From Lentisphaeria bacterium (GTDB lineage Bacteria > Verrucomicrobiota > Lentisphaeria > Oligosphaerales > JBFJXC01): 64,000 nucleotides of DNA. Position numbers and translations under genes: made by a program. Under the pieces are notes generated by a model. It was given only the letters and a program-made list of their open reading frames with translations. It did no database searches and was not told the origin of the DNA. The stretch covers positions 1,456-65,455 of the forward strand of contig JBFJXC010000001.1 in the NCBI GenBank assembly GCA_041623325.1. The letters run 5' to 3'. Numbering within the stretch: position 1 is the stretch's first letter; the number at the start of each line of letters is the position of its first letter. This document shows, piece after piece, positions 30,405-58,733 of the stretch.

Positions 30405-30480
30405 GCCAGTGTAGCTCAGTCGGTAGAGCAATTCACTCGTAATGAATAGGTCAGCGGTTCGAATCCGCTCACTGGCTCCA
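30405..30480 (+). tRNA. tRNA-Thr (anticodon CGU), CCA encoded
   Basis: Hand-folded cloverleaf. Acceptor GCCAGTG/CACTGGC, D-arm GCTC-AGTCGGTA-GAGC, anticodon arm ATTCA-CTCGTAA-TGAAT (anticodon CGT), variable AGGTC, T-arm AGCGG-TTCGAAT-CCGCT, discriminator T, CCA. Confidence 0.93.
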
Positions 30481-31942: not shown

Positions 31943-34225
31943 CTAAGAGATGGAGGCCACGGCGGCGGCGAGGGGGGAGATGAGGCGGCGGCAAGAGACG
32001 TTGTTCAAACTTACCGACCCGGCGCTAATACCAGCGTCTAGGTATATGTTTTTGTCCGACGAAACTGTGCTCAAAATATCAACAGACTGGCCTATTGAAT
32101 TGTTAGTGATTCCCAATGCTCCGCCTAGGATGGGCCGAAACCCGGCTATTGGAATTTCAACTACGCCGCACACTACCCTATAGACGTTGCCGGTCACATG
32201 GCTGGCGATACTCTGGTAGATGCTCCCGCTTGTCTCGACTGCGACTGCAAGCCCGCCAGAAATACTCCAGCCATCACCTAGCGTCCACCCCGTCGTCCCG
32301 TCACTAAAGTCCCCGTTCGTGACCAGCTCCGGCCCCAGCATCCAGCTCGGGGCCACCCCGGCGGGGCAGCGCTCGTCGGCTCGGGCAATGATGTCGGCCA
32401 CGGTGGCCTCCCCCCGGAAGATGCGCGGGGTCTGGAGCTGGCCGTCGAAGGTGCGGTCGCCAGCGGCGCGGTTGCCGATGAAGAGATCGGTGGTCCCTGC
32501 AGAGGGGACGCCCGCGTCCTGCTCGGTGCCACTCTGGACGCCGTTGATGTAGAACGAGGCGTACATGTGGCCGTCGCCGGAGTCGTAGCGCATGGAGACG
32601 GCCAGGTGCTGCCAGATGCCCGTCGCAATGCTGTTGATGCCTGAATAGGCGTCTGTCGCCCCAACGTCGGCAGATGCGAACATGTTGCTGTCAGAGCTTT
32701 TTAGAGCCCAATAGGCACTTCCGGTGTCGAAAATCCGAGGATATGTCCCGATGGCGTCGGGGTCCAGCCAGCACTCTGCCCACCAGCTCTCGTCCACCGG
32801 GATGCAGTCCGGGACGCTCGCATACTGCCCTGCCCCGTCGAACAGGAGCGTGCCGTCGGGCTGGGGGGTACAGCCGTTGAGTGTCAGCTTGGCACCCGTG
32901 GGGCTTAAATCAACGGGGGCGTTGGTGCGGTAGTCGTGGTGAAGGACCAAGTTGGTTGAGCTGACGGGCAGATTGTTGGCCAGATCAGAGATTTCGGATG
33001 GGGACAAGGCGCGACCGTACACCCATGCTTCACGCATATCACCGTTTAGTGAAGAGCTGTACTCATCTCTGATACCAATCAGTAGATTAACAGATTCTGT
33101 CAGTGTGACAGCCGCAAGCGTATATGAGCCGTCTGGAGTTCCGTCCAAATAAAACGTAACCGTTGTCCCATTTACGGTTACGGCAACGTGGTGCCATGTG
33201 TTATCATTTACAGCCGTATTTGACGCCGCGCCAGTGCCACTAATGCCTCCAACTAGCTGTAGCTTACCGTTGATGTCGTAGGACAAGCTATACGCTCCAA
33301 CTGTATTGTTTCGCTTGGCGATGATGTATTTATAGCTCGAATCGCTTGCCTTTATCCAAGCTGCATATGTGATATCTCCGCTGGATATCTGCAACGATGC
33401 ATCATTTCCGCAATTGATATATGAGTCCGTTGAGCCTATCACCGCCCCGTTGACCGTATCGAACTCGACCGCCGTGGGGGTGCCGTCGTTGCCTAGACCG
33501 CTTTTGTCCGCGCAGGGGTTGCGAGGCTCGACCGCAAGGAGGCAGGATGGGTGTTGGCGGGTGTAGTCGTGATAGAGGACCAAAGCACTGCTGTCGATCT
33601 CATGTCCATTGGCAAGCTCTGCGGCTTCGGAGTCAGAAATGGCCCGATTATATATCCGCACAGAAGACATACTTCCAAGAATAGCTCCAGAAGAAACAGA
33701 GTAAGATCCAATAATTACACTACGCCCAGTTGATGTAGCGTCTCCACGAGTAGACGTTTGTATTGTTGTTTCATCAACCCCGTCGATAAAAATTGACTGT
33801 ACGGTTGCTGTCTGCCTTAATAGGATATGATGTCGCCCGGCGGTTAATGCACCAGCTCCTGTAGAGGTGTTGTAAGGAACCCCACCAGTGTTGTTGCGAA
33901 TGGTGACTTCACCAGTTGACGTGTGATAAGCATACCACCCATCAAGTCCAAAAGCCCCATGTCCAAACAAGCCTCGAAGGGCTGCCAGATTATCCAGGTC
34001 AACCCAAAATGCAATAGACCATTCATCATCGACATCAATATTCAGCCCCACTTCTGCTACTGTTCCCAGAGTTATGTACTCGCCAGCCGTTGCACTAAAC
34101 ACTGCTCCCTGGATCTGGTCCCAGCTAACACCCCCAATAGGTACGCCATCCTTGCCATTCCCAGATAGATCAAGGCATGCTTGTGGCCCGCCGTAGGTCA
34201 GTTTTCTCGCCGTCGCCCGCTTCAT
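31943..34225 (-). CDS. LamG/concanavalin-like repeat protein, probable receptor-binding tail fibre or spike
   Basis: Three units end in LamG_3-like motifs (VRIYNRAISDSEAAELAN, EAWVYGRALSPSEISDLAN, TPRIFRGEATVADIIARA). C-terminal LVTNGDFSDGTTGW is a CBM-like module. TAATG overlap at 34225. Confidence 0.75.
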   Translation of the reverse strand: MKRATARKLTYGGPQACLDLSGNGKDGVPIGGVSWDQIQGAVFSATAGEYITLGTVAEVGLNIDVDDEWSIAFWVDLDNLAALRGLFGHGAFGLDGWYAYHTSTGEVTIRNNTGGVPYNTSTGAGALTAGRHHILLRQTATVQSIFIDGVDETTIQTSTRGDATSTGRSVIIGSYSVSSGAILGSMSSVRIYNRAISDSEAAELANGHEIDSSALVLYHDYTRQHPSCLLAVEPRNPCADKSGLGNDGTPTAVEFDTVNGAVIGSTDSYINCGNDASLQISSGDITYAAWIKASDSSYKYIIAKRNNTVGAYSLSYDINGKLQLVGGISGTGAASNTAVNDNTWHHVAVTVNGTTVTFYLDGTPDGSYTLAAVTLTESVNLLIGIRDEYSSSLNGDMREAWVYGRALSPSEISDLANNLPVSSTNLVLHHDYRTNAPVDLSPTGAKLTLNGCTPQPDGTLLFDGAGQYASVPDCIPVDESWWAECWLDPDAIGTYPRIFDTGSAYWALKSSDSNMFASADVGATDAYSGINSIATGIWQHLAVSMRYDSGDGHMYASFYINGVQSGTEQDAGVPSAGTTDLFIGNRAAGDRTFDGQLQTPRIFRGEATVADIIARADERCPAGVAPSWMLGPELVTNGDFSDGTTGWTLGDGWSISGGLAVAVETSGSIYQSIASHVTGNVYRVVCGVVEIPIAGFRPILGGALGITNNSIGQSVDILSTVSSDKNIYLDAGISAGSVSLNNVSCRRLISPLAAAVASIS

Positions 34226-34983: not shown

Positions 34984-37900
34984 TTAGTCGAACAGTTCCC
35001 GCTTGGCCCGGAGGCGGGAGCGGCTGAAGACCTTCTTGAGGATCTTCGCGTCCCGTTGGCCGGGGGAGTCGGGGTTCAGGCGACCGTCGCGGATCAGCTC
35101 GTCGACTTTCGCGCGCGCCAGCTGCCCGGCGCGGACGGTGTAGCGGTAGTGCTGATCCGCCGTCATCCATTGAGTCTTACCGGACACGGTGCGGCGGGGG
35201 GAGGGGACAGTCGGCCAGTACTGGTCGTTGGGATTGGCGCGGTTGTAGTTCCAGATCAGGCGGTCGGCGTCGGCCATGTCGCCGGGTTTGGCGGTGTAGA
35301 CGGGGGACACGAGCCGGAAGGCGATGTCGGTGGCATGGCTGCCGAAGTTCTCGCGCTTGTCGATGTCGCGGCCCCAGAGATCGACCTTGGGCAGAGGTCG
35401 GACCAACCCGGCCTTCTCCAGCACCTTACCCCCGAACTGATTCTGCCAGTAGGACAGGCCGCGCTCGTAGTTCCTGGACTCCCGGATCTTGTCGTCGAAA
35501 CCGCGCAACGAGGCGCGCACGGCGTTGGGAACCCAAGAGGCCAGGAAGTTGGTGGCCAGCCGCCCGCCGGTGTCCGGGTCCTCGGTGGCCCGGACGATGT
35601 CGCCGACGGTCTGCAGGAATGTTTTGTCGCGGACGTTCTGGACGGCGGAGTTCAGCATATCCTTGGCGATCTTCCCGCCCTCCTTGCCGTCCTTGGCGTC
35701 GCGGAACGCCTGGAGGGAGTCGACCATCATGGTCAGGGCTCCGGCCATGGGCTCGATGCGGTTGTACGAGAACCAGCGGTCGCCGATGCGGATCGAGGTG
35801 GGCGGCAGGTTCTGCATCTTGAAGGCATACTTGCCCCTTTCCTTGTAGCTGGGGCGGCTGCCGGTGATCCACGGCTCTTCGTCATCGTCGCCCATCAGGG
35901 AGTGCAGGGCCATGAGCGCCCCCCAGGCCAGCAGCTGCTCGGCGGCGTGGTGGACGGCGCGGTTGGCGTCGCCCTTGTAGTTTCCGGCGGCGGCGTTGTA
36001 GGCGAGGTTCGCGGCTCCCAGCGGCGACTTGCGGACGGTGGTCAGGATGATGTTTGCGGGGGTGGTCAGAAAGGGCAGGGCGTACTTGGCCACGGTCCCG
36101 AGCGGCCCGCCCGCATTCCGGGCGTTCAGCAGGTGCTGCACGAACTGGCCCGGCTTTGCCTGGAAGGTCAGCTCCAGGGCGCGGTTGGTGGCCCAGGCCA
36201 CGGCGTCGCCGTCCTGATCCCCCGCCAGTTCGGCCACGCGGTTCTCCAGCGCCTGGCCGGTCAGTCCCTCGGCCTTGGCCTGGCGGTAGGCGTAGGCGCT
36301 GGCCTCGATGGGCACGATCAGGCTCTTGGCGATCTCGTCGGCCCAGAGCAGGAGGCGACCGGGGGCGCGGATGATCCGGCCCGGCTTTCCGGCGATGGCC
36401 GCGGCGTTGCCGCCTTCCAGTTTCTGAGTGCCGCCGACCACGGGGCGCTCCAGCTCGAAGGCCAGGGCCCCGTTGCGGAACGCCTGGCGAACGTTGCCCT
36501 TCAGAGCCCCGGCCATGTGCCGGAACTCGCCGAAGCTGGCGGCCTCCTTGCGGCGGGCCAGCAGGTTGATGGACGCCTCGGTGAAGCGCTGGAGGGTGAG
36601 TTCGCCCACGGCGAAGACGGAGTTGCCCAGCATGTTGGCCGCGTGTGTGGTGGGCATGGAGAGCAGGACGTTGATCCACCACTCGTAGGCCTTGTCCCCC
36701 TTGGACGCCTTGGCCGCCTGGATCTCGCGCACGAGCGCGGCGGCTTTCTGCGGGGTGTCCACGTCGGCCTCGGTCAGGTTGTCCAGGTCGATGCCGCGTT
36801 TCTTCAGGCGGGCCTTGAGCTTGCGCAGCTGCCCGATCTTCCGGGGCAGGATCTTGTCGGCGTCGCCTGGCTTCATCCTGCCGGGATCCAGAAAGGCCCC
36901 GTTGATCAGGGCGCGGACCTGGTCGAGCCTGGACTTGAGCGGATCGAACCCGGCCCGCATGGCGCGGGCGATTGCCGAGCGTCCCGAGCGGTAGGCTTGG
37001 GCGGCGAGCATGGCGGTCTTCAACGCGTCGGCGTCCATGGTGCGGACCGCCTCGCTCCCCTTGCTCTCCAGCAGGCGCTTGGCCATGAGGGTGTTGACCG
37101 GATCGTCCATGGCCAGGCGACCCTCGGCCAGGTCCTGCCAGACACGATCCTCGTTGCCGGTCAGACGGGCGTCGGCCTCGGCCTCCCACTCGGCCACGGT
37201 CTGGCGGGCGGGCAGGCCGTTTTCAAGACGCAGCTGATCAACGGCGTCCATAAGCTTGCGGCCCTCTTTTGACTCGGCGGGGTTGGCCAGGTCGGGGCGT
37301 GCGGGTTCGAGGTCGGGCTTTTCCAGCAGGTTCACGAAGCGGGCCATCTGCTCGGGGGAGCGGAGGGATTGACGGGAGGCGTTTAAGGAGAAGCGCACGT
37401 CGGCGTCTTCCCGGTCGATGTCCGGACGAATATTGCGGCGGATTTCGGGAGAGAAGCCGCTGCGGACCTCCACGTTGCGGGCCTCGATCTCGCCGGCCAG
37501 GCGGCGATAGCGGCGCTCGGGGGTTCCGGCTGCCAGCTCGGCTTGAATCGCCTCCAGGCTCAGGCGGTCGAAGGCCCCCGCCGCGCCGGGGGCTGGCCTT
37601 CGACCGATCCGTTTCGGGAACAATTCGTCGATGATCCGGTAGCCCTGCAGGTCCGGCCTGCCCTGCTGCAGCTCGTGCAGCACCCTGGCATCGTTCAGGG
37701 CTTCGAGGGTGTAGTTGTGCTTGCGGAACATGGCCGGGCTGCCGCCTTTGGCGAAACCCTCGCGGCGCTGGATGGCGTGCTGCAGCTCGTGCAGGAGCAC
37801 GATCCGGGCCGTGTCTGGGGTAGGGGCGGACACCTGCAGGTCTGGCAGTGGGGCGCGGTCGTGGCCGTACACCCCTTTGAACGGCAGATGGCGGCCCACG

Positions 37901-40900
37901 CGGATCTCGGCTGGCACGCGCCCCAGTTCCGGGTAGGCCTTGAAGAGTTCGGGATGGTCGAGCAGATCGGCGAGTTTGCCGCGCAGGGTGAAGCGGGCCG
38001 TCTGCTCCCCCCGGAAGCGCTCGGCGCTGTCGCGGTCTGGGAAGACGCCCCGGTCCACGCCCTTGCGGCGCACGAAGAAGCGCCCGCTCTTTTCGGTTAT
38101 GGTCCAGTCCGGGGTCTTGAGCCTGGCCCGCGAATCGTCGATCTCGAAGCGCCAGATGCCGTCCAGCCCGCGAAACCAGCCGGTTTCTTTGCGGACGGCT
38201 TCGGAGTCGGCCCCGGCCTCTTCCATTGTCGTGGCGCGGGCCAAGGCGGGCGAGTCCATGGTTCGGGCTCGCTCGCCGGCCATGGAGAACCTTATCTGGC
38301 CGGTTTCGCGCATGGAGCGGTGCTTCAGGAGGGCGCTATCCATGACGATCACGTCCAGGAAGCCTTCGCGCATGGCCGTCAGGGGCTCGGCCACGGCCTG
38401 CACCCGATCGCGGAAGTCCGGGTCCGCCGCGTCGCCGACCACGCCCAGGACGGTTTTGGCCACTCCCGGCTGCGCCAGGGTTTCGGCGGCGATGGTGGCC
38501 GCGTCGAACTGGTCCATCGGGGAAGTCTGGACCGACACGACTCGCATGCGGTTGTCCAGTCCCAGCACGGTGTAGCTGGGCAGCAGCTCGCCTTCGGGGG
38601 TTTGCTGCAGGACGGTGCGGATGGTGCGAGTGGCGGTTTCGGGATCGATCACCATGGGGCTGGACAGGTGTGTATCCTGCCGCCCCGTGACCGGATCGAC
38701 CATGGTGTCGGTGTCGCCGCCGAATTCGCCCATGATCGAAATCGGCACGTTGTTGTCGCCGGGTTCCGGGATGTAGGAGTGTTTGCCGCCTTCGGCGAAC
38801 GAATAGGCCTGCCAGTTGCCGAGCACGATATGGTCCGCAAGGGCGTCCGGCCTGCCGATGTCCCGCATGGCTTTGCGCACCGCCTTGGTCGTGGCGATGT
38901 CGCCCTGCGAGGGGGTCGGGTCTCCGCCGGGGTGGTTGTGGACCAGCATGAAGCGGTCGGCCCCGGTGTGGCGCATGGCCTTGAAGAGCTGCTTGATGTC
39001 GAACGGGGAGCTGCTAACCGTGCCCATGGTCAGGACCACCACGCCGGTTTTGCCGACGGTGCCGTCTTTTGCGACCGGCACGAAGGTCAGGCGCTCCTGG
39101 GAGGGATTGTGCAGGTCGTGCAGCAGCTGGGCGGCCTCGGAGGGCGTGGAGAGCCTCAGTCCGCCGACCTTGAGGCTCCCGATCCGGGCGAGGTTCTCCC
39201 GGTATCGGGAGCGGACCGAGAAGTCGATTTTCTTCCGACGCGGTACTCGGCTGTTTCGTCCGGCTCCTGATCCAGACCGAGCCGGCATCCCTCGATAGGA
39301 TAGGTAAAGGGCTTCTTGCGGGCCTTGCTTTTCGGTTTCTTGCTCATGCCGGACTGTCGCACCGGTTTCTGCGGAAGTCAAGCTTTTCCGGCGGCTGAAG
39401 GGGACGTCGTCCGGTTCCGAATCTGCAAGCGGATTCGGTGAACTAGGGCGCAGGCTGGCGGCCTGGCGCTGTTGCTCCCAGTAGTCGGCCTCTTCGCGCT
39501 CCAGTTTGGCGGGGGAGTCGAGTCTGCCGTCGCCCTGGAGGATGCGGACCAGGTCTTCGGGATCGGCGTCCGGGCCGAGCAGGCTGGGTTCCTCGGCGGC
39601 GATCAGGGCGATGGCCTGATCGTAGGTGAGCCCGCTGCCGCGATAGTAGGGGGAGATGCCGGAAAGCTCCTCCATGTCCACCTTCACGCCGCCCTCTTCG
39701 CGGATCAGGGCGCGGGCGCGGGTGGTCGGGGTGCTGGTGTCCTGCTCCCACCGGGCCTGTCGGGCACGTTTTTCCCGGGATTTTTCGAGTTGCCGGTTTT
39801 GCTCGACGGCCTGCATCTGCCCGGCGGCGATCTCGGCGGCCCGGCTGCGGATCGCGTCCAAATCTTTTAGGAAGCCTGTGGCGTCGCGTTCCCCCTTGAG
39901 ACGGGTTTTGACCTGCTCGACGAAGCGCACGACCATGTCGGCCAGGCGGCGGGCAAGCGTTTGATCGCGTGCGGAGAGTTCGCGCCAGAAGTCGGCGTCG
40001 CCGAACAGGTCGCCCATCACGTCGCTGGCGAACTCCTCGTTGAGATCCGCGCCGGATTCGGCGTACTGGCTGGTGAGTCTGTCGATGTAGGCGCGGTACT
40101 TGTCGGAAAGCGTGTCGCTGGAGTCGGTCAGCAGCTTTACAAAGCTGTCGTGGGCGGCGCGGTCAGTGGTTTTCAGGTAGTGGCCGAACTCGTGTCCGAC
40201 GGTGACCAGGGCGGGGTCGCCGCCGGGGGCCGTGTTCAGGTAGATGACGCCGTCGACGATGGAGCCGTTGAAGAATCCGGCCTCGGCGCTGGCCGGGGTG
40301 ACGAAGACCGCCTCCAGCCCGAGGTACTTGGCGACCTTGGCGGCCAGCCTGGTCTCCCGGCTTTTGGGCTCGGCGATAAGATAGGAGCCCTCGGGCAGGG
40401 CCGTTTCCGGCGAGCGCTTGGAGTTGACCGCCTCCAGCAGGCCGGTGGCCTCGGTTTCGGTCTGCACGTAGTGGCGGGCGAATTCCTTGCTGGCTTTTTC
40501 GGCCTGCTGGGCCTGCTCGGCCTCGGCGATGCGGGGGGCGGGCTCGGAGGAGGGAGCCTCGGTTTCGGACCCGGACCGCGAGCGGTCCTGATGAGCCAGG
40601 GACTTCGCAGCCTCTGCGGTTACCGCCACATCGACGGAGCCCATACCGCCGCCCATCACGCCACCGACCAAGGCGGCGTCGAACACGCCGTCGAAGATGT
40701 TGCCGATCTTCTTTTCGTTGCCGGTGGTAATATCGAAAAGATTTTCGGTCAGTTGGGTCTGGGCCTCTTCGGTGGCCTCCACGCCGACGGCGGCCAGGAT
40801 CTTCTTCGCGCCATCGCGAAGCCCGAATTTCAGCAGCTCTTCGCCTCCTTTTGCGGCCAAGGCTTTCTCGATCAGGCCCTGGGTGCCCCAGCGCTCGAAC

Positions 40901-41652
40901 AGCACTTCGGCCAGACCCGTGCCGACAGCATTCAGTTTTTTGGCGGTATCGGACATGTCCGCATTGTCGGCCACTTCGTGGTATTTCTGGCCTGCCGAAG
41001 AGGCACCCATCATGCCAAGACCGGCCTGGGGGGCCCCCACCAGGGTCAGGCCGATTTGCCCGGCCAGTTGCGGCAGGTTCTCGAGCACGGAAAGGCCGAG
41101 CTTTTCCCCGGCCCCGATAAGATCCTTCTGCTTGAAACTGTCCAGGATGGTCCCCGGTTCGCGCTCCGGGGCTATTGCTTCGGCGTAGTCAAGCAGGTCG
41201 TCCGCAGCCTGGTCGAGCTGTTTCAGGCCAGGGACCTGCTTGGCCGACACTTTTAAGCTTGGGATATTCAGCGCTTCGGCGGCGAAATTCTGCGGGATGG
41301 CAGCCAGATCATAGACCAGGCCGGGAGCTTTCTCCAGTCCGCCTACCAGAGCCGCCGTGCCGGAGCCCAGAGCCTGCATGGACTTCCTGCCGCCTTCGGC
41401 GACGGCATCCTTGACGTCCCTGGCTTCCGGCACGGCCATGGTTCGATGCTCGCCGAACATGCCGTGTTCTCGGGCCAGCTCCAGGAGGGCGTCCGGCGAG
41501 TAGCCCTCGATCAGCCCGGCCTTGCCGGCGGCGTGCAGCTCCAGCATCCACCTGTTGCGGTAGGCCTGCTGCTGCTCGGGCGTGGCGTTGCGGTAGCGGT
41601 CGTGCGACTCGATCTCCGACCAGTCGGGGGGCAGCGTTGCGGTGTCGGGCAT
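34984..41652 (-). CDS. Giant polyvalent internal-virion-type protein (2,222 aa) with two HExxH zincin motifs and a RadC-like JAB/MPN motif
   Basis: Start placed at ATG 41652; the tracked ORF's first 226 codons overlap the upstream gene. HEFGH at 40180-40194, LVHNHPGGDPTPSQGD at 38899-38940, HELQH at 37777-37791. Confidence 0.85.
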   Translation of the reverse strand: MPDTATLPPDWSEIESHDRYRNATPEQQQAYRNRWMLELHAAGKAGLIEGYSPDALLELAREHGMFGEHRTMAVPEARDVKDAVAEGGRKSMQALGSGTAALVGGLEKAPGLVYDLAAIPQNFAAEALNIPSLKVSAKQVPGLKQLDQAADDLLDYAEAIAPEREPGTILDSFKQKDLIGAGEKLGLSVLENLPQLAGQIGLTLVGAPQAGLGMMGASSAGQKYHEVADNADMSDTAKKLNAVGTGLAEVLFERWGTQGLIEKALAAKGGEELLKFGLRDGAKKILAAVGVEATEEAQTQLTENLFDITTGNEKKIGNIFDGVFDAALVGGVMGGGMGSVDVAVTAEAAKSLAHQDRSRSGSETEAPSSEPAPRIAEAEQAQQAEKASKEFARHYVQTETEATGLLEAVNSKRSPETALPEGSYLIAEPKSRETRLAAKVAKYLGLEAVFVTPASAEAGFFNGSIVDGVIYLNTAPGGDPALVTVGHEFGHYLKTTDRAAHDSFVKLLTDSSDTLSDKYRAYIDRLTSQYAESGADLNEEFASDVMGDLFGDADFWRELSARDQTLARRLADMVVRFVEQVKTRLKGERDATGFLKDLDAIRSRAAEIAAGQMQAVEQNRQLEKSREKRARQARWEQDTSTPTTRARALIREEGGVKVDMEELSGISPYYRGSGLTYDQAIALIAAEEPSLLGPDADPEDLVRILQGDGRLDSPAKLEREEADYWEQQRQAASLRPSSPNPLADSEPDDVPFSRRKSLTSAETGATVRHEQETEKQGPQEALYLSYRGMPARSGSGAGRNSRVPRRKKIDFSVRSRYRENLARIGSLKVGGLRLSTPSEAAQLLHDLHNPSQERLTFVPVAKDGTVGKTGVVVLTMGTVSSSPFDIKQLFKAMRHTGADRFMLVHNHPGGDPTPSQGDIATTKAVRKAMRDIGRPDALADHIVLGNWQAYSFAEGGKHSYIPEPGDNNVPISIMGEFGGDTDTMVDPVTGRQDTHLSSPMVIDPETATRTIRTVLQQTPEGELLPSYTVLGLDNRMRVVSVQTSPMDQFDAATIAAETLAQPGVAKTVLGVVGDAADPDFRDRVQAVAEPLTAMREGFLDVIVMDSALLKHRSMRETGQIRFSMAGERARTMDSPALARATTMEEAGADSEAVRKETGWFRGLDGIWRFEIDDSRARLKTPDWTITEKSGRFFVRRKGVDRGVFPDRDSAERFRGEQTARFTLRGKLADLLDHPELFKAYPELGRVPAEIRVGRHLPFKGVYGHDRAPLPDLQVSAPTPDTARIVLLHELQHAIQRREGFAKGGSPAMFRKHNYTLEALNDARVLHELQQGRPDLQGYRIIDELFPKRIGRRPAPGAAGAFDRLSLEAIQAELAAGTPERRYRRLAGEIEARNVEVRSGFSPEIRRNIRPDIDREDADVRFSLNASRQSLRSPEQMARFVNLLEKPDLEPARPDLANPAESKEGRKLMDAVDQLRLENGLPARQTVAEWEAEADARLTGNEDRVWQDLAEGRLAMDDPVNTLMAKRLLESKGSEAVRTMDADALKTAMLAAQAYRSGRSAIARAMRAGFDPLKSRLDQVRALINGAFLDPGRMKPGDADKILPRKIGQLRKLKARLKKRGIDLDNLTEADVDTPQKAAALVREIQAAKASKGDKAYEWWINVLLSMPTTHAANMLGNSVFAVGELTLQRFTEASINLLARRKEAASFGEFRHMAGALKGNVRQAFRNGALAFELERPVVGGTQKLEGGNAAAIAGKPGRIIRAPGRLLLWADEIAKSLIVPIEASAYAYRQAKAEGLTGQALENRVAELAGDQDGDAVAWATNRALELTFQAKPGQFVQHLLNARNAGGPLGTVAKYALPFLTTPANIILTTVRKSPLGAANLAYNAAAGNYKGDANRAVHHAAEQLLAWGALMALHSLMGDDDEEPWITGSRPSYKERGKYAFKMQNLPPTSIRIGDRWFSYNRIEPMAGALTMMVDSLQAFRDAKDGKEGGKIAKDMLNSAVQNVRDKTFLQTVGDIVRATEDPDTGGRLATNFLASWVPNAVRASLRGFDDKIRESRNYERGLSYWQNQFGGKVLEKAGLVRPLPKVDLWGRDIDKRENFGSHATDIAFRLVSPVYTAKPGDMADADRLIWNYNRANPNDQYWPTVPSPRRTVSGKTQWMTADQHYRYTVRAGQLARAKVDELIRDGRLNPDSPGQRDAKILKKVFSRSRLRAKRELFD

Positions 41653-41657
41653 GGCGG

Positions 41658-42842
41658 TTATTTCCCGGGGTTGAAGAAGGAAGCGAGAGAGCGTTTCTGC
41701 GCGGGGTTCCCGGCGGGGGCCTTGTTGACGGCGACCGGCTTCATGACCACGTTGCCGGCGGCGTCGCGGGTCGGGATGTGGTAGCCGCCCACGCCGTCGG
41801 ACCGGATGGTCGGCGTCTTGGCGGCGGCCCGGACGGCGGCCCCGCCGTGCAGAGCGGCCAGAGTGGAGCTGAAGCGCTGCTGCAGGCGGTCCTCTTTGGC
41901 CATCTCGGCCACGTACTGGTCCAGGTAGTAGAGCTTGCCGTCCACCTCGAGCGTGATCTTGCGGGGGTCCGGGTCGGTCTGGGTGACCGTGATCGTCTCC
42001 CCCCAGTGGGTGGCGGAGAGCAGCAGGCCCAGCTCGTCCATGAGCCGCCGCTGCTTGTCCGGATCGCGCTCGGAGAGCAGTTTCTGGCCGCCCTGGCGCA
42101 GGGCGTGGAACTGCTGTTCGTCCTGTGTGGCGGAGGCGTAGATCTCCCCGGCGGTCTTCATGGCGGCGGAATAGCTGGGGACCAGCCCACCTCTGACGGC
42201 TTCTTCGGCGAAGTCGGCCTGGACCTTCCTGCCCAGATCGCGCTTGGCCTGCAGGAACTGGAAGCGCCCGGCCACCTCGGCGGCGTCGCTGGCGTAGGCG
42301 GCGTCGCGGACGCCGTCGAAGTTGTCCCACGAAAGTTCAATCTCGCTCTGGCGGTCATCGCTGACCAGGTACTCCCGGCCGTCGCGGCTTTCCACGCGGT
42401 AGCCGTGCTCGCGCATGTACTGGCGGGCGGTGTCCTGCTGGCCCCGCAGCCAGAGAACGGCGGCGGTGTCGGCGGCCACGCCGTCGGCCATGCCGTCCAT
42501 GAGAAAGGTTTTGTCGTTGTCGCCGACCCGAGCGAAGGCGTCGGGGCCGAGTGCGTTCTGCAAGGCGGCGTCAAGTTCGCCGCGTTTGATCCCCTGTGCG
42601 TGTTCCCTGGCTTCCTTCAAGCGGGACTGGTAGAGGGTGCGATCGCCAAGCTCGTCGGCTCGGGTGGCCTGAGCCAGGCGGAAGTCCAGCAGCTTGTCCT
42701 GCTTGGCCTCGCGGGCCTCCTGGCGCTTCTCTTGCTGGGTGTGCATGGGGGCCAGCAGAACGCGGGCGGCGCGGGGGCCGTTGTCGGCCAGCCCCTCCAT
42801 GAACATCCGGGCGAACCCGGCCTTCTTCTGTTCGTCAGGCAT
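41658..42842 (-). CDS. Hypothetical internal-virion-type protein (394 aa)
   Basis: Long ORF with phage codon bias, helical/charged composition, located between other virion-module genes. Confidence 0.6.
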   Translation of the reverse strand: MPDEQKKAGFARMFMEGLADNGPRAARVLLAPMHTQQEKRQEAREAKQDKLLDFRLAQATRADELGDRTLYQSRLKEAREHAQGIKRGELDAALQNALGPDAFARVGDNDKTFLMDGMADGVAADTAAVLWLRGQQDTARQYMREHGYRVESRDGREYLVSDDRQSEIELSWDNFDGVRDAAYASDAAEVAGRFQFLQAKRDLGRKVQADFAEEAVRGGLVPSYSAAMKTAGEIYASATQDEQQFHALRQGGQKLLSERDPDKQRRLMDELGLLLSATHWGETITVTQTDPDPRKITLEVDGKLYYLDQYVAEMAKEDRLQQRFSSTLAALHGGAAVRAAAKTPTIRSDGVGGYHIPTRDAAGNVVMKPVAVNKAPAGNPAQKRSLASFFNPGK

Positions 42843-43317
42843 GGAACGATTCCTCCAGGTAGTCGGCGAAGGTCCGGAAGCTTTGGGGCTGCGCGGGGCC
42901 GGGGCTGGCGGCGGGCCCCTGCCCCGGGTAGGAGTCTGGGGAGGCGGGCGCGGGCTCGTCCATCTTGCCCAGGCGCTTGCCGCTGGAGCCGTCTGTCAGA
43001 AATGATGCCAGCTGGTAGCCGATCTTGCCGCCCCGGGTCTGGCCGGGCTGCAGTTTGCCGGCCACGGCCTCGACGGCCTGGCCGGGGCCGCTGTTCTGGA
43101 CGGCCTGTTTGGCGTAGTTCGCGATGGTCTGCCCGAAGCCGGTGGGCGCGGCTGCGGCGGGCGAGCCTCCGGTCTGGCCTGCTGCCTTGGCAGCCTTGCC
43201 CCCCGCCTGGCCTGCTGCCTTGGCAGCCTTGGCGACCGCCCCGGCAGCCTTGGCCACTTTCGACGCTTCGGCGGCTTTCTTGATCGCCCCGGCGACTTTG
43301 ACGAGGGCTGCAATCAT
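42835..43317 (-). CDS. Ala/Lys/Gly-rich hypothetical protein (160 aa)
   Basis: Low-complexity N-terminus (AAKAAG repeats). 8-nt overlap with the next gene. Confidence 0.5.
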   Translation of the reverse strand: MIAALVKVAGAIKKAAEASKVAKAAGAVAKAAKAAGQAGGKAAKAAGQTGGSPAAAAPTGFGQTIANYAKQAVQNSGPGQAVEAVAGKLQPGQTRGGKIGYQLASFLTDGSSGKRLGKMDEPAPASPDSYPGQGPAASPGPAQPQSFRTFADYLEESFHA

Positions 43318-43784
43318 TCTGCTATCTCCTTCTCGTATTTTATGCAGGGCACGCGGCCCCGCTGGCGGTCGGCGAAGACCGCGCCGGGGTCGATCCCGCA
43401 GTCGCGGGCGCCGCAGCGCCGGGCGAAGAGCCGGGCGGGCCGGTTGGTTTCGGGGATGTAGCCGACGATGCGCCGGCAGCCGGTGACGCGGGCGATGACC
43501 GCCTCCAGTTCGGCGGCGGCCTCCGGGGCGCGGGCGTGGCGCTCGAAGGCCACATGCACCACAAAGGCGTCGCCGTCGGCCTGCCCGTAGGCGACCCCGG
43601 CCACCCGGCCCCCTTCGAGCGCCGCGAAGGCCCGCAGGTGGCCCGCCCGCAGCCGGTCCACCAGATCCAGCAGGCCCATGAACGAGCCGCGCCCGCCGTC
43701 CAGCCTGGGCAGGACATGGTCCATCAGCAGGAAGTCGGTCAGGCAGCGGATGCTCTCCCGGTCGTGCCCGAGCACGGCGACCAT
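43314..43784 (-). CDS. GNAT-like N-acetyltransferase (weak call)
   Basis: FVVHVAFERHARAPEAAAELEAVIARVTGCRRIVGYIPETNRPARLFARRCGAR resembles the GNAT beta4-alpha3/alpha4 region, including the conserved Asn. The canonical Q/RxxGxG/A motif is not clear. Confidence 0.45.
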   Translation of the reverse strand: MVAVLGHDRESIRCLTDFLLMDHVLPRLDGGRGSFMGLLDLVDRLRAGHLRAFAALEGGRVAGVAYGQADGDAFVVHVAFERHARAPEAAAELEAVIARVTGCRRIVGYIPETNRPARLFARRCGARDCGIDPGAVFADRQRGRVPCIKYEKEIAE

Positions 43785-44239
43785 CAGCCGATGCTCCAGC
43801 CGCTGGACGAGCTCTGCGACGCCATCGGCGCGGCGGTGGTCGGGGTCGGGGCCAGGGCGCCGCCCATCTGCAGCAGGCTGTTCTTCTGCTGCAGGTTGGC
43901 CAGGCGGGCCTTCATGAAACTGTCGGCCAGGGCGGAGCTTTTGGCGTTGGCCAGGCTGGCCAGTCCGGCGGCCTCCACGCCGCTGCCCTCCAGACCCCGG
44001 CGGGCCATGAGGGTGCGGAAGTCCTGGTTGGCCCCGGCGAAGGCCTTGTTGGCGTCGCCGACCGACTTCCGGGCCAGGGTCGAGGTGTGGCCGTCGCCCT
44101 GGGTGTCCCGCAGCGAGCCGATCAGCTCCGGGAAAAAATAGGACTGGTACTGCTTCTCGCGGGACTTGAGCAGCTCGGACTGCGCCCTGGTCAGGGTCGT
44201 TTCGCTGCTGCTGCTGCTTGATTTCTGGCTGCCGCCCAT
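43784..44239 (-). CDS. Hypothetical Ser-rich virion-module protein
   Basis: GGAGG SD before ATG 44239. 151 codons. Confidence 0.55.
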   Translation of the reverse strand: MGGSQKSSSSSSETTLTRAQSELLKSREKQYQSYFFPELIGSLRDTQGDGHTSTLARKSVGDANKAFAGANQDFRTLMARRGLEGSGVEAAGLASLANAKSSALADSFMKARLANLQQKNSLLQMGGALAPTPTTAAPMASQSSSSGWSIG

Positions 44240-44340: not shown

Positions 44341-45824
44341 GTGTTCAGACCCTCGTCGTAGTCCAGGGTGTATTCGCGCAGGGTGCCGCTGCCGCTGATG
44401 ACAACCTCCGCATATCGGCCCATGGTTCCGGCGGGCAGCCGCAATTGCCGCCTGCCGGAACCGGGGATCTCGCGGGTGAAGCGCAAGTCGCCGTCCGTGT
44501 ACAAAGAGAGCGTTACCGGACAGGTGGAGGTCACGAAGAGCCGCCGAAAGCGCTTGAGCGTGGTCAGGCTGCCGCCGGCCAGCCAGGGGGAACGGTAGGT
44601 CCAGAGCAAGGGCTCTCCCGCGCCGAATTCCTGAATATCGTCCGAACCTTCCAAGTACAGCGCGTCATTGTCGGCATCGTACCAGGCGTAGTCGCAGGTC
44701 AGGTCCAGTTCGCGCAGCACGTCGCCGCTGCGGTGGTCCAGCACCAGCGATCCCATGGAGTGCCAGAGATAATAGCTGTCGTTGGCCACGGTGGCGTGGA
44801 TCGGCGTGAATTCGAAATCGTACCGGTCTTTGGTGACGATGGACACCTTGTCGCCGTCCCAGATGCACAGCCCGTCGTTGCTCATCCAGATCGGAGTGTT
44901 GCCGACGGTGGCCAGGGTGCGCCAGTTCGGGCAGCCCTGACGGTCGGGGATTTCCTGCTTGACGATGGTATCGGCATCGGTGCCGGTCACGCGGTAGACG
45001 CGGTTATTGGTCATCACCAGCAGCCCCTGGTACTCCTTGCCGATAGCGGTAATCGTATCGTCGAATCCGATCCAGTTCAGCGATTGCCAGGCGTGCGGGT
45101 TGCCGGATTCGGAGAAGTAGAGCTTTTCGCCGACGGCCAGGAAGAAGACGCCGTCCCGCTCGGTCAGATAGCGCCCGCCGTCGGCCGGCGGCAGCCAGCC
45201 GAGCGTCGACAGCGCGGTACTTAGCAGCAAGTCAACATCGTCCATCTCGTCGGTGTACGTCGTCTCGTCGTTGCTCAGCTCGTCAACCAGGTAGAAATCG
45301 GCGCCATTGGCGGCCGTGCGGTAAATGCGAATCGCGTCGATACCGTCTGGACGTGCGGGAATCGCAGTTAACTCGACAGTAGTCTTACTGGAGACATCCA
45401 CCTCATCGTAATAATCGTCGGATTCACCAGGTGCGGATTCCCATCCGTCGTCGGACAGATGCGTAATGCAATACCGATACGTCCCGTTGAAAACATCGCC
45501 GGTATCAATGCCGGCGGCCAGCGTCGGCCGCATAGTCGGATAAGGGATGCCGAGCGTGCGATCTTCGCCGCCATAAGCGGGCGTGTCGTTATCCGTCCAG
45601 TAATGCGAACCGAACCACTCAACCACGGACCGGGACGCGCTGCCGCAATGCCCCGCTTCCAAGGCCGTCAAGAAGTTGGCGGTATCCGTGTTGTTGACGG
45701 CTTTGAGATAACCGCGGCTAACGTCGGCATTATTGAGTTCGCGTGCGGCGTTGACGGGCAACGCCTGCGGCGACATGCGGGTATTGAGTCCCGCGGAAAA
45801 ATCCGAAACGGTGATCATAATCAA
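44337..45824 (-). CDS. Hypothetical tail/structural protein (495 aa)
   Basis: Large beta-rich ORF between the fibre and internal-protein genes. ATGA overlap at 45821-45824. Confidence 0.6.
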   Translation of the reverse strand: MIMITVSDFSAGLNTRMSPQALPVNAARELNNADVSRGYLKAVNNTDTANFLTALEAGHCGSASRSVVEWFGSHYWTDNDTPAYGGEDRTLGIPYPTMRPTLAAGIDTGDVFNGTYRYCITHLSDDGWESAPGESDDYYDEVDVSSKTTVELTAIPARPDGIDAIRIYRTAANGADFYLVDELSNDETTYTDEMDDVDLLLSTALSTLGWLPPADGGRYLTERDGVFFLAVGEKLYFSESGNPHAWQSLNWIGFDDTITAIGKEYQGLLVMTNNRVYRVTGTDADTIVKQEIPDRQGCPNWRTLATVGNTPIWMSNDGLCIWDGDKVSIVTKDRYDFEFTPIHATVANDSYYLWHSMGSLVLDHRSGDVLRELDLTCDYAWYDADNDALYLEGSDDIQEFGAGEPLLWTYRSPWLAGGSLTTLKRFRRLFVTSTCPVTLSLYTDGDLRFTREIPGSGRRQLRLPAGTMGRYAEVVISGSGTLREYTLDYDEGLNT

Positions 45825-46753
45825 GCCAGTTTTTGAATGAATACATCGGTGTAGACTTCGCCCGCGCCGGACGAGACGGCAATGCCGAAGCCGGCGGCAG
45901 CGGCGGGCGCATAGCCGATATAGTGATCAATGCGTATTGTGGTGGATCCGCCCAGCACAATACGACCGCGAAGGCGTGCAGATGTCTGAGCGTAACTGGC
46001 ACCAGCGGCGTTGTACTCAGAGCTTCCAACAAGAAGGGTGGCTGAATTATCTACGTCGTATGCTCTGATCTGATGATTTGTGGCGCGAACCGCCGGGGCC
46101 CTGGCTTCAATCCAGTACGTTCCGGACGGCAAAGTGATTTGGTTATTATTCAGCTCCGCGCCGGAGATTCCATTAATCACCGTGGCATTCAACTCTCGCT
46201 GATTCCAGTCGTCGGCGGTTGGCGTATCACCCGCATGACCATCTGTGCCGCTGGCTTGCTGTTCCTGCACGTGCAGGATTTCACTTGCGACAGCGACGCC
46301 CAGCTGCTCAGCGGTCACATGCTCAGCGGTCACAGAATGCGGATTGTTGGTGTTAGATGTGTGGGAACTCAATGCATCCGACACGGTCTGGACCATGGCC
46401 GCGACGGTCTGCTCAACCACGGCGTTCAGGGAGGACGGGGAGACCGCAATGGAACCGCTGCTGCCTGCCAGCGTCTCGTCCTGGGTTGCCAGCCGGATTA
46501 TACCGGCGGCGGTGAGGGTGGCCGCCCCGTCGGGGTCCCCGACCTTGCCGAGCAGGTAGAGCAGGGCGGCCTCGACATCGGTGCCGCTCTCGATCAGCTG
46601 GCGCACCTGAGTTGTCAGCGGGATGTGCCCGGCGTTGAGCTTGCTGCCGGTCCGGGTGCCGCCGGTGCTGGTCGGGACCTGGCTGGTGGCGCCGTCGCCG
46701 TCGGTGTCGAACTCGATGTCTTCCTTGTGGAGCTTTGCCTTGGTGGCGAGCAT
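45821..46753 (-). CDS. Tail fibre protein (310 aa)
   Basis: Start at ATG 46753 (GAGGTGA SD). TSNTNNPHSVTAEHVTAEQLG is a motif common in phage fibres. The C-terminal half has low GC. Confidence 0.65.
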   Translation of the reverse strand: MLATKAKLHKEDIEFDTDGDGATSQVPTSTGGTRTGSKLNAGHIPLTTQVRQLIESGTDVEAALLYLLGKVGDPDGAATLTAAGIIRLATQDETLAGSSGSIAVSPSSLNAVVEQTVAAMVQTVSDALSSHTSNTNNPHSVTAEHVTAEQLGVAVASEILHVQEQQASGTDGHAGDTPTADDWNQRELNATVINGISGAELNNNQITLPSGTYWIEARAPAVRATNHQIRAYDVDNSATLLVGSSEYNAAGASYAQTSARLRGRIVLGGSTTIRIDHYIGYAPAAAAGFGIAVSSGAGEVYTDVFIQKLA

Positions 46754-46776
46754 GGTTTTCACCTCGTGGTTAAAGG

Positions 46777-48135
46777 TTAAAAGAACTGTCCGGTGGCGGC
46801 GCGGGTCCGCTTGGCGCGGCTGCCGCTTTTGACGCGGCGGGCCAGCCTGGAGTCGAACAGGTCGCGCAGGGCGGCGGCCTTGCTGGCGTTTCGCATCTCG
46901 GTTTCGGCCTCCAGGCAGGCCGCGGCGGCGAGCAGCACCGGGGCCAGAGGGTCGCGGATCTCCAGAAGTCCGGCAACCGGCAGGCGGGCGTAGTGGAGCA
47001 GGGGGGCGGCGTCGTACTCGGTCAGGGCGACCACGATGCCCTCCTCCCGGGTGAAGGTCGCGCCCTCGACGGCGACGAGTGCGCCGGGCTCGGCGGACAT
47101 CTCCAGCGACCATTGCGTGTAATAGTCGATGGTCACCTCGTCGAGTCCGCAGACCAGATCTCCCTCATAAAAATAGTGCGGCAGGTAGCGGTAGACGTCG
47201 TAGTACACCTCGCGCAGCGTAAGGAAGTCTTCCGGCAGGGCAAAGCGCGACGTGAAGTTGCCCGGCCCCGGGAAGTATTCGACCAGAGAGATGTCGTACA
47301 CGGAAAACGAAGCGTCCGGGCTGGCTGCTTCGCATTCGATCAGCAGCTGGTTGGGGTCGTACGACTCTCCGGTGTACTGGAAAAGCAGGGTGAATTGATG
47401 AAATGCCGTCTGCGTTGTGACCGTAAAGGACTCATCCGCCCCGCCGACCGACACGGTAACGGTCCCGGCGGCCCCGTCGCCAGCCAGTCCGACTTTCGCA
47501 CGGTAGTGCTTCTGCGAGTCCAGGGAACACCCCTGCGCGACGCCGAAGCTGGACTGCGAGCCGCGAGCGATCCTGAGCCGGCCGGAGTCGACCGACAGCG
47601 ACGCATCCCCAAATGCGGTCCACATGCCGTCCGCCCCCGGAACCTCGAAGTCGCCGCCGAGCACTCGGCTGGCGTTGTCCTCCGCGACCAGTTCGGCGGT
47701 TTCGGCTGCTCCACAGCCACAGACCACCGCCCCCTCCTCCTGGTCGAAGCTCGCGGCCTCGGCGGTCTGGTCCGGGGTGGGGCAGAGGCGGAAGCGGTCG
47801 GCGTCGCTCAGGCCGTCGAAGATGTAGAGGGCGTCGCCGGTCTGCCCGGCGAAGTCGGGGCCGAGGCGACGGGCCAGTTCGCGCCAGCCGGCGGAGTCCA
47901 GCACGGTGTCGGCGTCGGTGGCCGCCAGCAGGGCGGCGAAATCGTCGGGCCAGGGGTAGCTGCCGTCTTCGTTCTTGATCAGGGGCAGGCATTTGGGCAG
48001 GCAGCGGGTGCGGCGGCAGTATTCGGCCTGGGCGGCGTTCAGATGCCGGTCCAACTCGGCGTCGGTCCAGATCGCCGCGTCGGGATCGGCCAGCAGCAGG
48101 CGGAGACGGTCGCGCATGTCCTCGAAGGTGGTCAT
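46777..48135 (-). CDS. Adaptor-like structural protein with inserted jelly-roll module (paralogue of 48136-48708)
   Basis: Shares LNAAQAEYCRRT, RFRLCPTP and YARLPVAGLLEIRD blocks with the upstream 190-aa protein. The central insert contains GGDFEVPG, a CBM-like feature. Confidence 0.65.
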   Translation of the reverse strand: MTTFEDMRDRLRLLLADPDAAIWTDAELDRHLNAAQAEYCRRTRCLPKCLPLIKNEDGSYPWPDDFAALLAATDADTVLDSAGWRELARRLGPDFAGQTGDALYIFDGLSDADRFRLCPTPDQTAEAASFDQEEGAVVCGCGAAETAELVAEDNASRVLGGDFEVPGADGMWTAFGDASLSVDSGRLRIARGSQSSFGVAQGCSLDSQKHYRAKVGLAGDGAAGTVTVSVGGADESFTVTTQTAFHQFTLLFQYTGESYDPNQLLIECEAASPDASFSVYDISLVEYFPGPGNFTSRFALPEDFLTLREVYYDVYRYLPHYFYEGDLVCGLDEVTIDYYTQWSLEMSAEPGALVAVEGATFTREEGIVVALTEYDAAPLLHYARLPVAGLLEIRDPLAPVLLAAAACLEAETEMRNASKAAALRDLFDSRLARRVKSGSRAKRTRAATGQFF

Positions 48136-58307: not shown

Positions 58308-58351
58308 GTTATACTTTGTTACACTCTGTTGCACTTGTTACACCGTTATAC
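58308..58351 (+). repeat. Iteron block 3: 5 x GTTATAC-like
   Basis: Starts at 58308, 58318 (GTTACAC), 58328 (GTTGCAC), 58337 (GTTACAC) and 58345, spaced 8-10 bp. The last two overlap the RusA 3' end. Confidence 0.85.
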
Positions 58352-58733
58352 TGTTGCGGGTCAATGTCAGCTCCACCCTCGGGCAGTCGCGGTCGATACC
58401 GAACGTCGGCGGCAGGGTGATCAGATGTTCGCTGTCGTCGTCCAGGAGCAGCCCGGCGTCGACAATGCCGTCATAGGCTGGCTTAAGCATGGCCAGATGG
58501 TTCACGTCGTCGCGTCGGCGCTTGGTGGCGTGGAGGAACGCGGCCCGGACGCTCGCCCGTTCCCATGGTCCGGACTCGATGCCCTCGGCCTCTGCCGCCT
58601 CTCTGGCCAGGCGGCGGTATTTTTTGGCCGCGGCCGCCTTTTTCATGCGCCCCCCCCTGGATGCCGGCGGCCTGTTGGGAGACAGGGCGGAGGGGGGCAG
58701 CGGCAGGACGATGGTCACGGTTTCGGAGGTCAT
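58338..58733 (-). CDS. RusA-like Holliday junction resolvase
   Basis: 131 aa. LPLPPSALSPN...KRRRDDVNHLAMLKPAYDGIVDAGLLLDDD fits the RusA acidic-residue pattern. Confidence 0.75.
   Translation of the reverse strand: MTSETVTIVLPLPPSALSPNRPPASRGGRMKKAAAAKKYRRLAREAAEAEGIESGPWERASVRAAFLHATKRRRDDVNHLAMLKPAYDGIVDAGLLLDDDSEHLITLPPTFGIDRDCPRVELTLTRNSITV

Follow-up and report, generated by a model that had tools for sequence, protein, structure and literature searches.

We analysed a 64,000-nt stretch of contig JBFJXC010000001.1 (assembly GCA_041623325.1) of a Lentisphaeria bacterium, hereafter called the window, and focused on a giant gene that lies on its reverse strand among phage genes. The gene encodes a protein of 2,222 amino acids (aa), in which an N-terminal module, a RadC-type JAB domain, an LPD23 domain and two zincin-like units precede an all-alpha C-terminal module (C-module). 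As judged by profile and fold comparisons, the C-module is related to the internal virion proteins that occupy the gp16 slot of T7-like phages. The coordinates of these features are listed in Table 1.

The giant gene and its domains

The giant gene is the largest open reading frame (ORF) of the window. The frame is open from 34984 to 42330 (−), and translation from the ATG at 41652 gives the 2,222-aa product. Because this ATG is only 5 nt past the stop codon of the upstream gene, the choice of start is sensible, and the public gene call (P0001) has the identical 2,222-aa product. The sequence-only reading of this DNA had proposed the same start, length and rank, and the ORF list and P0001 bear it out. 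Upstream of the ATG, 226 further codons are open in a frame overlapping the upstream gene, and their translation is Arg/Gly/Pro-rich and of low complexity. As expected, this extension looks like an out-of-frame reading of G+C-rich coding DNA, with no evidence for a longer protein.

Table 1. Positions of the giant gene, its parts and selected neighbouring genes in the window.
Feature	Position	Strand	Residues	Remarks and basis
tRNA-Thr (CGT)	30405..30480	+		Host metabolic genes to the left, phage genes to the right; ARAGORN
Complete coding sequence, putative polyvalent ejection protein	34984..41652	−	2,222 aa	Stop codon 34984-34986; ORF list and translation
C-module	34987..37311	−	1448-2222	All-alpha, predicted gp16-slot internal virion (ejection) type; homology and fold matches
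Junction motif VRFSL	37384..37398	−	1419-1423	After zincin-like unit 2, 30 aa before the PDLANP start of the C-module; pattern scan
Zincin-like unit 2	37393..37977	−	~1226-1420	H1288, E1289, H1292; E1388 and E1390 in AGEIEARN; homologue alignment and AlphaFold2 model
LPD23 domain	38116..38286	−	1123-1179	Pfam E 1.2e-21, 76.7 bits against a cutoff of 27
Junction motif IRFSM	38281..38295	−	1120-1124	Just before LPD23; pattern scan
RadC-type JAB domain	38785..39150	−	835-956	E853, H905, H907, S915, D918; Pfam RadC
Junction motif IDFSV	39214..39228	−	809-813	Just before RadC; pattern scan
Linker	39223..39735	−	640-810	Rich in R/S/A/E/P/G; composition
Zincin-like unit 1	39748..40383	−	~424-635	H487, E488, H491; candidate third ligand E540; homologue alignment
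N-module	40603..41382	−	91-350	Gly/Ala-rich hydrophobic patch at aa 316-344; phmmer, hydropathy scan
Upstream 394-aa gene	41658..42842	−	394 aa	Conserved partner in gp15 position; synteny and homology
Three small genes	42835..44239	−	160, 156 and 151 aa	gp13/gp14 position; synteny with L001
Major capsid protein	49322-50398	−		
Portal	51405-53066	−		
Large terminase	53188-54714	−		

Our Pfam search matched RadC (PF04002) at E 1e-18 with 67.9 bits, against a cutoff of 22.1, and the match covers positions 2-120 of the 121 in the profile. The domain also matched the solved homologue PDB 2QLC (E 1.7e-9). The five residues of the JAMM set given in Table 1 are all present and are conserved across the aligned relatives. 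The 22-residue string FMLVHNHPGGDPTPSQGDIATT occupies aa 901-922 (nt 38887-38952); the motif had been recognised correctly from the letters, but its coordinates, given then as 38899-38940, need this correction. A C-terminal extension specific to the subfamily reaches to about aa 1070. In the JAB fold family and in the complete E...HxH...S..D site, the domain resembles bacterial RadC/DUF2466 proteins such as 2QLC. However, those proteins are about 150-230 aa long, whereas here the domain is embedded in a 2,222-aa protein and belongs to the subfamily with the extension. The closest RadC relatives were found inside other giant proteins, which carry ddrB-ParB, PBECR3 or the C-module itself. Of these, ddrB-ParB has been listed as phage-only, and PBECR3 has been stressed as typical of phage polyvalent proteins (PMC5512222).

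Exactly two HExxH strings are present in the giant protein, against 0.04 expected, and the probability of at least two was ~0.0009 in 20,000 shuffles. They are HEFGH (aa 487-491, nt 40180-40194) and HELQH (aa 1288-1292, nt 37777-37791), and by translation both fall exactly where they had been placed earlier. LPD23 and the second HExxH together make up one conserved unit of ~300 aa, which is present in many proteins of 2-3.8 thousand aa; in the homologues examined, zincin-like unit 2 always follows LPD23. Within unit 2, HE.QH.IQ..EGF and AGE(I/V)EAR are invariant in 13-17 homologues, and H1288, E1289 and H1292 are invariant in 13. The AlphaFold2 model of this unit has a predicted local distance difference test score (pLDDT) of 74 and a predicted template modelling score of 0.66. 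It shows strands at model residues 152-157, 167-170 and 177-181, then the HExxH helix at 184-203, with local pLDDT of 85-88, while E1388 and E1390 are on a later helix (291-302). In this model, the unit has zincin topology. In unit 1, for which the alignment is thin, H487, E488, H491 and E540 are invariant in all six aligned homologues, P0002 and P0040 included. A downstream Glu is the putative third metal ligand of these units, with E540 in unit 1 and E1388 or E1390 in unit 2 as candidates. Between the profiles of units 1 and 2, hhalign gave an alignment of the strand-plus-HExxH core (E 6e-4, probability 28%), and by this comparison the protein has two different zincin families.

Weak matches of unit 2 were found to IrrE (profile E 0.086) and to Pfam DUF6782 (E 0.085, below cutoff). 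A Foldseek search of its model against PDB gave nothing better than E 0.2, with PprI (E 3.7) and CapP (E 4.7) as the best zincins. Unit 1 matched no PDB sequence, and Pfam MPTase-PolyVal has no match in the giant protein. Of the two zincin motifs claimed from the sequence alone, the HExxH strings and the downstream Glu residues thus hold up as conserved in homologues, but the significant match to a solved zincin is missing. The searches did not place the motifs outside a peptidase fold, as the residues are conserved and the unit 2 model has the topology, although the zincin fold lacks full positive confirmation.

The N-module is common to another giant protein, P0003 (2,163 aa, carrying LPD38), whose aa 283-550 it matches with a phmmer E of 5e-32. 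No family or homologue was found for the linker in the domain and homologue searches.

The C-terminal module and its relatives

Our tblastn search with the C-module retrieved the 'internal virion protein D' of Pelagibacter, Roseobacter and Desulfovibrio podophages, and the module also matches PHROG 6651, a family named 'internal virion protein'. A profile built from 12 C-module sequences aligned with residues 643-1170 of gp34 (1,268 aa) of the Desulfovibrio phage ProddE with an hhalign probability of 100% and an E of 8e-40; the core common to the two proteins is aa 1648-2165 of the giant protein. ProddE is T7-like, since its capsid, tail-tube, fibre and terminase genes match those of T7 by BLASTP, and its gp34 is encoded between internal virion proteins B/C and the fibre, i.e. 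in the gp16 slot. The AlphaFold model of the C-module is almost wholly helical, with a pLDDT of 67. Searched against the predicted viral structures of BFVD, this model gave 52 matches below E 1e-3, the named ones ranging from E 1e-24 to 1e-7. One group consists of internal virion proteins of Pelagibacter and Synechococcus podophages (E 1e-13 to 1e-7). The other, with values down to E 1e-24, consists of C-terminal pieces of proteins named ART-PolyVal, PolyVal ADP-ribosyltransferase, MuF C-terminal domain, LPD3 or 'nuclease'.

These comparisons indicate that the C-terminal 775 aa are homologous to the gp16-slot proteins of T7-like phages. The region had earlier been described as uncharacterised, which the alignment with ProddE gp34 does not sustain, and as roughly 900 aa long; for 34984 to about 37300 the actual length is ~772 aa. 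An analogy with T7 gp14-16 had also been drawn. It is sound as an analogy, given the position in the slot and the homology to gp16-slot proteins, but not as homology to T7 gp16 itself. Direct homology of the C-module to T7 gp16 was rejected at a profile hhalign probability of 0.2%, and BLASTP of ProddE gp34 against T7 gp16 gave nothing. The C-module profile had no match among PDB sequences. In Foldseek its model had none below E 0.4 in PDB, the PhiM1 ejectosome chain at E 4.8 being noise, and C-module peptides had no match in a viral contig collection. Kinship with N4 gp50 or with SU10 gp24 (1,473 aa, encoded at the end of the Kuravirus ejection cluster) was likewise dismissed, as no similarity was found; the comparison with SU10 was prompted only by the adaptor genes.

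The homologues of the giant protein are proteins of 2-3.8 thousand aa with ART-PolyVal, Kinase-PolyVal, PBECR, ddrB-ParB, LPD and MuF_C domains. P0002 (2,309 aa) has the same gene order. It has aa 230-635 in common with the giant protein, with HEFGH kept, and aa 1448-2221 at 42% identity; its middle part carries LPD5, LPD1 and MuF_C. P0040 (2,143 aa) possesses zincin-like unit 1, RadC and the C-module (896 bits) without the LPD23 unit. P0102 (2,396 aa) has GNAT, LPD5, LPD1, Kinase-PolyVal, RadC and part of the C-module. Two giants come from metagenome-assembled genomes (MAGs). The L005 giant (3,126 aa; Victivallales MAG CAXXVV010000013.1, 2921-12301) joins a Strawberry-notch-type helicase and LPD3 to the C-module, and the L006 giant (2,003 aa; Victivallaceae MAG JAVBSD010000398.1, 3579-9590) has LPD3 and the C-module. 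P0022 is a further example of this modularity. Cargo-free C-module proteins of 1,060-1,350 aa also exist, among them P0033, P0034 and P0037 (1,336-1,352 aa), which have the C-module and no recognisable enzyme domains.

What is kept in these proteins is the C-module, and often zincin-like unit 1 too, while the enzymes ahead are swapped: LPD5/LPD1/MuF_C, RadC alone, helicase with LPD3, or kinase with RadC. Since the relatives keep the C-module and the upstream gene while the cargo varies, the C-module is a fixed chassis and the enzymes ahead of it are exchangeable cassettes. The insertion of cargo within an ordinary ejection protein was ruled out, as the N-module is unlike the N-terminal halves of P0033, P0034, P0037, ProddE gp34 and T7 gp16. 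In species-representative genomes, relatives were seen only in Victivallales (Lentisphaerota), with one fragment from a Planctomycetota MAG (P0035). Because of this distribution, the phage lineage seems to be tied to hosts of the Planctomycetes-Verrucomicrobia-Chlamydiae (PVC) group.

The borders between the domains have a sequence pattern in common. The pattern [IVLM]x[FY]S[IVLMF] has exactly three matches in the giant protein against 0.30 expected, and all three are at domain borders. The LPD23 unit has a conserved equivalent, R[FY]x[FM][AG]G, at its N-terminus, and relatives have [FYH]S[LR][KRN]x(2-6)NP at the border between zincin-like unit 2 and the C-module. The looser form [FY]S[LMV][KRN] was observed 21 times in 33 polyvalent proteins, against 9.5 expected, and permuted controls were flat. 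It borders LPD3 in the two Victivallales proteins and, in most lineages, the start of the C-module. The motif, in its stricter or looser form, is found at aa 1345 and 1537 in P0002, aa 2177 and 2355 in the L005 giant, and aa 1061 and 1245 in the L006 giant. The motif may mark processing sites or recombination joints.

The surrounding prophage

From position 1 to ~30,400, the window contains ordinary bacterial genes, including those for a DsbH-type thioredoxin, a glycosyltransferase, a radical SAM enzyme, a GH5 cellulase and a GntR regulator. Everything to the right of tRNA-Thr is phage genes, and integration probably took place at this tRNA gene. The window contains no att repeat of the tRNA-Thr region, so that the other prophage end and the integrase lie beyond position 64,000. 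Judged by its gene content, the element is a podovirus-type prophage integrated beside tRNA-Thr. No near-identical DNA was found in sequenced phages.

On the reverse strand, the genes follow in the order large terminase, portal, major capsid, two SU10-type adaptor-like genes, fibre, a 495-aa protein, the three small genes, the 394-aa gene and the giant gene. After the giant gene come two small genes and then a 760-aa protein with three ConA-like lectin domains. The gene annotation agrees in outline with the earlier placement of the giant gene between the fibre/tail genes and the receptor-binding gene.

The 394-aa protein has homologues in L005 (E 7e-11) and L001 (E 1e-4), each encoded immediately before the giant gene there. 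It had no family match in the domain scans, and T7 gp15, SU10 gp23 and CRP-804 gp33 were rejected as relatives, the comparisons being not significant. Among the three small genes, 43784-44239 has a weak 'DNA ejection' PHROG match (E 5e-4). The product of 43314-43784 (−) shows weak GNAT acetyltransferase similarity (Pfam E 0.0036 and PHROG E 0.001, both below threshold) and could be a second packaged enzyme. A GNAT domain is also present within the giant protein of the relative P0102.

The 760-aa protein (31943-34225, −) is probably the receptor-binding protein, on the basis of its three Laminin_G_3/ConA-like lectin domains. The G+C content is 0.554 in 32001-34000 versus 0.63-0.70 in the neighbouring DNA, and this low value over the 760-aa gene suggests a recent swap of a host-range gene. 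The ORFs 45821-47113 and 46777-48135 (−), both with phage matches, share 337 nt. Family similarity begins only at aa 196 in the fibre ORF and is limited to the first 125 aa in the adaptor-like ORF. Probably the true fibre start is further downstream, or the fibre and adaptor ORFs are joined by a frameshift. A replication/recombination module occupies 58338-63971 (−) and encodes RusA, a Prim-Pol/DUF3987 primase-helicase (748 aa), a superfamily 2 helicase (556 aa) and a Cas4-domain exonuclease.

Comparison with known systems and the proposed delivery

The giant protein can be classed with the phage-type polyvalent proteins (Iyer, Burroughs, Anand, de Souza, Aravind 2017, PMC5512222). RadC and LPD23 above the Pfam thresholds, two conserved HExxH...E units and a position in the virion module agree with this assignment, which had already been proposed. 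It resembles those proteins in being giant and multi-domain, in its place in a late/virion cluster, and in its zincin-like hub domains and LPD23. It differs from them in that its virion-linked part is a gp16-slot module and not MuF, a portal domain or an N4-type RNA polymerase (RNAP). MuF, portal and N4 RNAP are the virion-linked partners named in PMC5512222, where 'gp16' and 'internal virion' each have no occurrence. Pfam detected no MuF (SPP1 gp7-like) head domain in the giant protein, and P0002 has only MuF_C, a PBECR-type C-terminal domain. Our literature search found no paper in which 'internal virion protein' is paired with 'polyvalent protein'. RadC polyvalent proteins had also been taken as a class already described in phages. 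This was not borne out, and RadC in a virion protein goes beyond PMC5512222. RadC in a predicted virion protein and a gp16-slot module as its virion-linked part are thus two points that would extend the 2017 description.

About 520 aa of the C-module have homology to the gp16-slot internal virion protein D (ProddE gp34, Roseobacter phage CRP-804 gp34, and those of Pelagibacter and Synechococcus podophages). As in T7, ProddE and CRP-804, the gene follows those for small internal proteins and precedes the one for the fibre or receptor-binding protein. However, those proteins have 770-1,350 aa and no recognisable enzyme domain, while here ~1,450 aa of enzymatic cargo lie ahead of the module. The published size range of gp16-like proteins is 609-1,337 aa (PMC8954989), and at 2,222 aa the giant protein is therefore unusually large for the slot.

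T7 gp16 itself is also the largest of its ejection set, the last before the fibre, mostly alpha-helical, and a carrier of an enzyme domain on an ejection chain. The two proteins differ in that no sequence or fold similarity was detected, and in that the enzymes here point to cytoplasmic targets and not to peptidoglycan. Neither Pfam nor PHROG gave a match in the giant protein to a lytic transglycosylase such as that of the T7 gp16 N-terminus; this domain is phage-specific in gp16 and not universal (PMC8954989). The N4 virion RNAP (vRNAP) gp50 is the gp16 analogue of Schitoviridae, a protein of 3,500 aa that is ejected and has, besides an HExxH domain, a C-terminal domain that is large and alpha-helical (PMC13434306). 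Our protein is similarly a giant in gp16 position with HExxH, and zincin-like unit 2 weakly aligns with the HExxH region of gp50 (E 0.006). However, by Pfam and PHROG it has no RNAP domain, and the C-module is unlike the N4 C-terminal domain.

Among cultured phages, the LPD23 and zincin-like unit 2 pair is common to AF_016 (2,213 aa) of Pseudomonas phage AF and to the 'structural protein' (5,145 aa) of Pseudomonas phage 8P, at 32-38% identity. AF_016 (L010, 3994-10635) is annotated as hypothetical, and the 8P giant is gene 8P_023 (L009). AF_016 directly follows internal virion proteins A and B and a structural lysozyme, a position that corresponds to the gp16 slot in this cultured podovirus. 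It differs from our protein in having LPD22 and no RadC, and its C-terminal part is unlike the C-module of the window. Phage AF would be a practical experimental model. In podophage PTXU04, a 2,198-aa polyvalent protein is essential (PMC11879866).

We propose, with a probability of about two in three, that the protein belongs to the phage-type polyvalent proteins and has been built around the third ejection protein, that of the gp16 slot, of a podovirus-like temperate phage, with a cargo that is delivered by ejection and processed by the protein itself. The earlier suggestion of an ejectosome hybrid finds support in the C-module homology and in synteny. The structural side of the earlier reading is largely correct, and the targets that it named, host defence proteins and ubiquitin-like or other conjugates, are speculative. 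According to our proposal, the protein would be made late, and the C-module would serve to pack a few copies of it, along with the upstream gene products, into the internal core above the portal. At infection, the protein would be ejected through the short tail, and the C-module would join the inner-membrane or cytoplasmic end of the DNA conduit, so that the N-terminal cargo would reach the cytoplasm together with the DNA. There the zincin units would most likely cut the chain at inter-domain junctions, with [FY]-S-[LMV]-[KRN] as the candidate cleavage site, and free RadC and other pieces. A self-processing role for the metallopeptidases of polyvalent proteins has been proposed before (PMC5512222). 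The freed RadC might act on an early target, either nucleic acid, as in the published prediction, or an isopeptide as the alternative. A wider version of the proposal makes the C-module a general delivery chassis in broad, mostly uncultured podoviruses, including prophages of PVC-group hosts (e.g. Victivallales). In that version the cassettes would be bounded by [FY]-S-[LMV]-[KRN] sites cut by the zincins, and RadC would be released beside the entering DNA in the first minute of infection. We regard this wider version as doubtful and offer it tentatively.

Several points weigh against the proposal. It is a prediction that the protein is in the virion, that it is ejected and cleaved, and that any of its domains has enzymatic activity. 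With no homology to T7 gp16 in profile or fold, the term 'gp16-like' depends on position and on intermediates that are annotated and not experimentally characterised, and the confidence of the C-module model is only medium at its pLDDT of 67. Neither zincin unit significantly matches a solved metallopeptidase, the best values being E 0.086 for IrrE and E of at least 3.7 for zincins in Foldseek. In the hydropathy scan, a single segment was weakly hydrophobic and it lay outside the C-module, so that there is no evident sign of membrane insertion. The definition of the junction motif is post hoc, and several relatives, including P0040, are without it; it is a lead rather than a result.

The zincin units may alternatively be effectors that cut host proteins, of defence or of the envelope, and not the polyprotein. 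This is one of the possibilities listed in PMC5512222, and it would suit the presence of two different zincin families in one protein, as well as the weak, non-significant resemblance to the regulatory proteases IrrE/PprI and CapP. However, no target is known, and the units stand between cargo domains, which PMC5512222 reads as a sign of self-processing. LPD23 and zincin-like unit 2 moreover travel together with very different cargos, and the conserved junction motif flanks the cassettes. We consider cleavage of host proteins somewhat unlikely.

The C-module might also be only an encapsidation tag. The protein would then be packaged as an effector, in the manner of T4 Alt or P1 DdrB, without being a structural component of the DNA conduit, and other gene products would form the channel. 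The lack of detectable similarity to T7 gp16 and of a clear transmembrane segment in the C-module would fit such a role, as would the many cargo combinations that are tolerated and the N4 vRNAP, which has a region needed for encapsidation (PMC5512222). Nevertheless, in relatives with T7-like gene order the homologue is the only candidate for the gp16 slot, the pairing with the upstream gene is conserved, and the existence of cargo-free versions of 1,060-1,350 aa suggests that the C-module has an essential role of its own. A mere tag thus seems unlikely to us.

A more specific alternative concerns RadC, which could be an isopeptidase that strips ubiquitin-like or Cap2-type conjugates (as in Bil or the type II cyclic-oligonucleotide-based antiphage signalling system, CBASS) at entry. 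The complete JAMM catalytic set is in its favour. So is a 2025 review in which the nearest folds of RadC-like domains are JAMM deubiquitinases and peptidases and not nucleases, yet the same review states that no activity has been established for any RadC (PMC11981726). A precedent for an ejectosome protein acting on this defence is gp15 of ICP3, which inhibits a CBASS effector (bioRxiv 10.1101/2025.07.23.666291). On the other hand, the domain scores as RadC and not as Prok-JAB, for which its 18.5 bits are below the Pfam cutoff. RadC is said to lack the groove for a ubiquitin tail and is linked by context to DNA-processing domains, and a nucleic-acid role has been favoured for it (PMC5512222). 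The host part of the window showed no Bil or CBASS genes, although no search was aimed at them. We judge an isopeptidase quite improbable.

That the giant ORF is an artefact, either an assembly chimera or genes fused by a frameshift error, is very hard to credit: the exact protein is on a single contig only and its middle region is unlike that of the nearest relative, but independent relatives from other samples (P0002, P0040, L005, L006) are encoded by unbroken ORFs of 2,003-3,126 aa that follow the same N-to-C logic, homologues of all segments occur in unchanged order in other giants, and no stop codon interrupts the frame over 6.7 kb of DNA with 66-69% G+C.

The architecture is informative and is not a new kind of system. 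Current ideas are not overturned by it; rather, a known class is extended and one census point of the 2017 paper is corrected. In 2017, injection along with phage DNA was predicted for polyvalent proteins, most of which have no known route of entry. A C-terminal third that appears to be a gp16-slot ejection module, with the same fold that ends many phage polyvalent proteins, provides a concrete and testable mode of delivery, in which the cargo would ride on a component of the ejectosome, and this parallels the recent result on N4 vRNAP. The cassette swapping and the junction motif suggest assembly by recombination and disassembly by the protein's own peptidases. RadC, a ubiquitous bacterial domain, would be placed where its substrate must be present at DNA entry, which narrows the search for its function. 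If true, the chassis reading would account for the physical entry of polyvalent proteins into the cytoplasm and provide a tractable assay for RadC.

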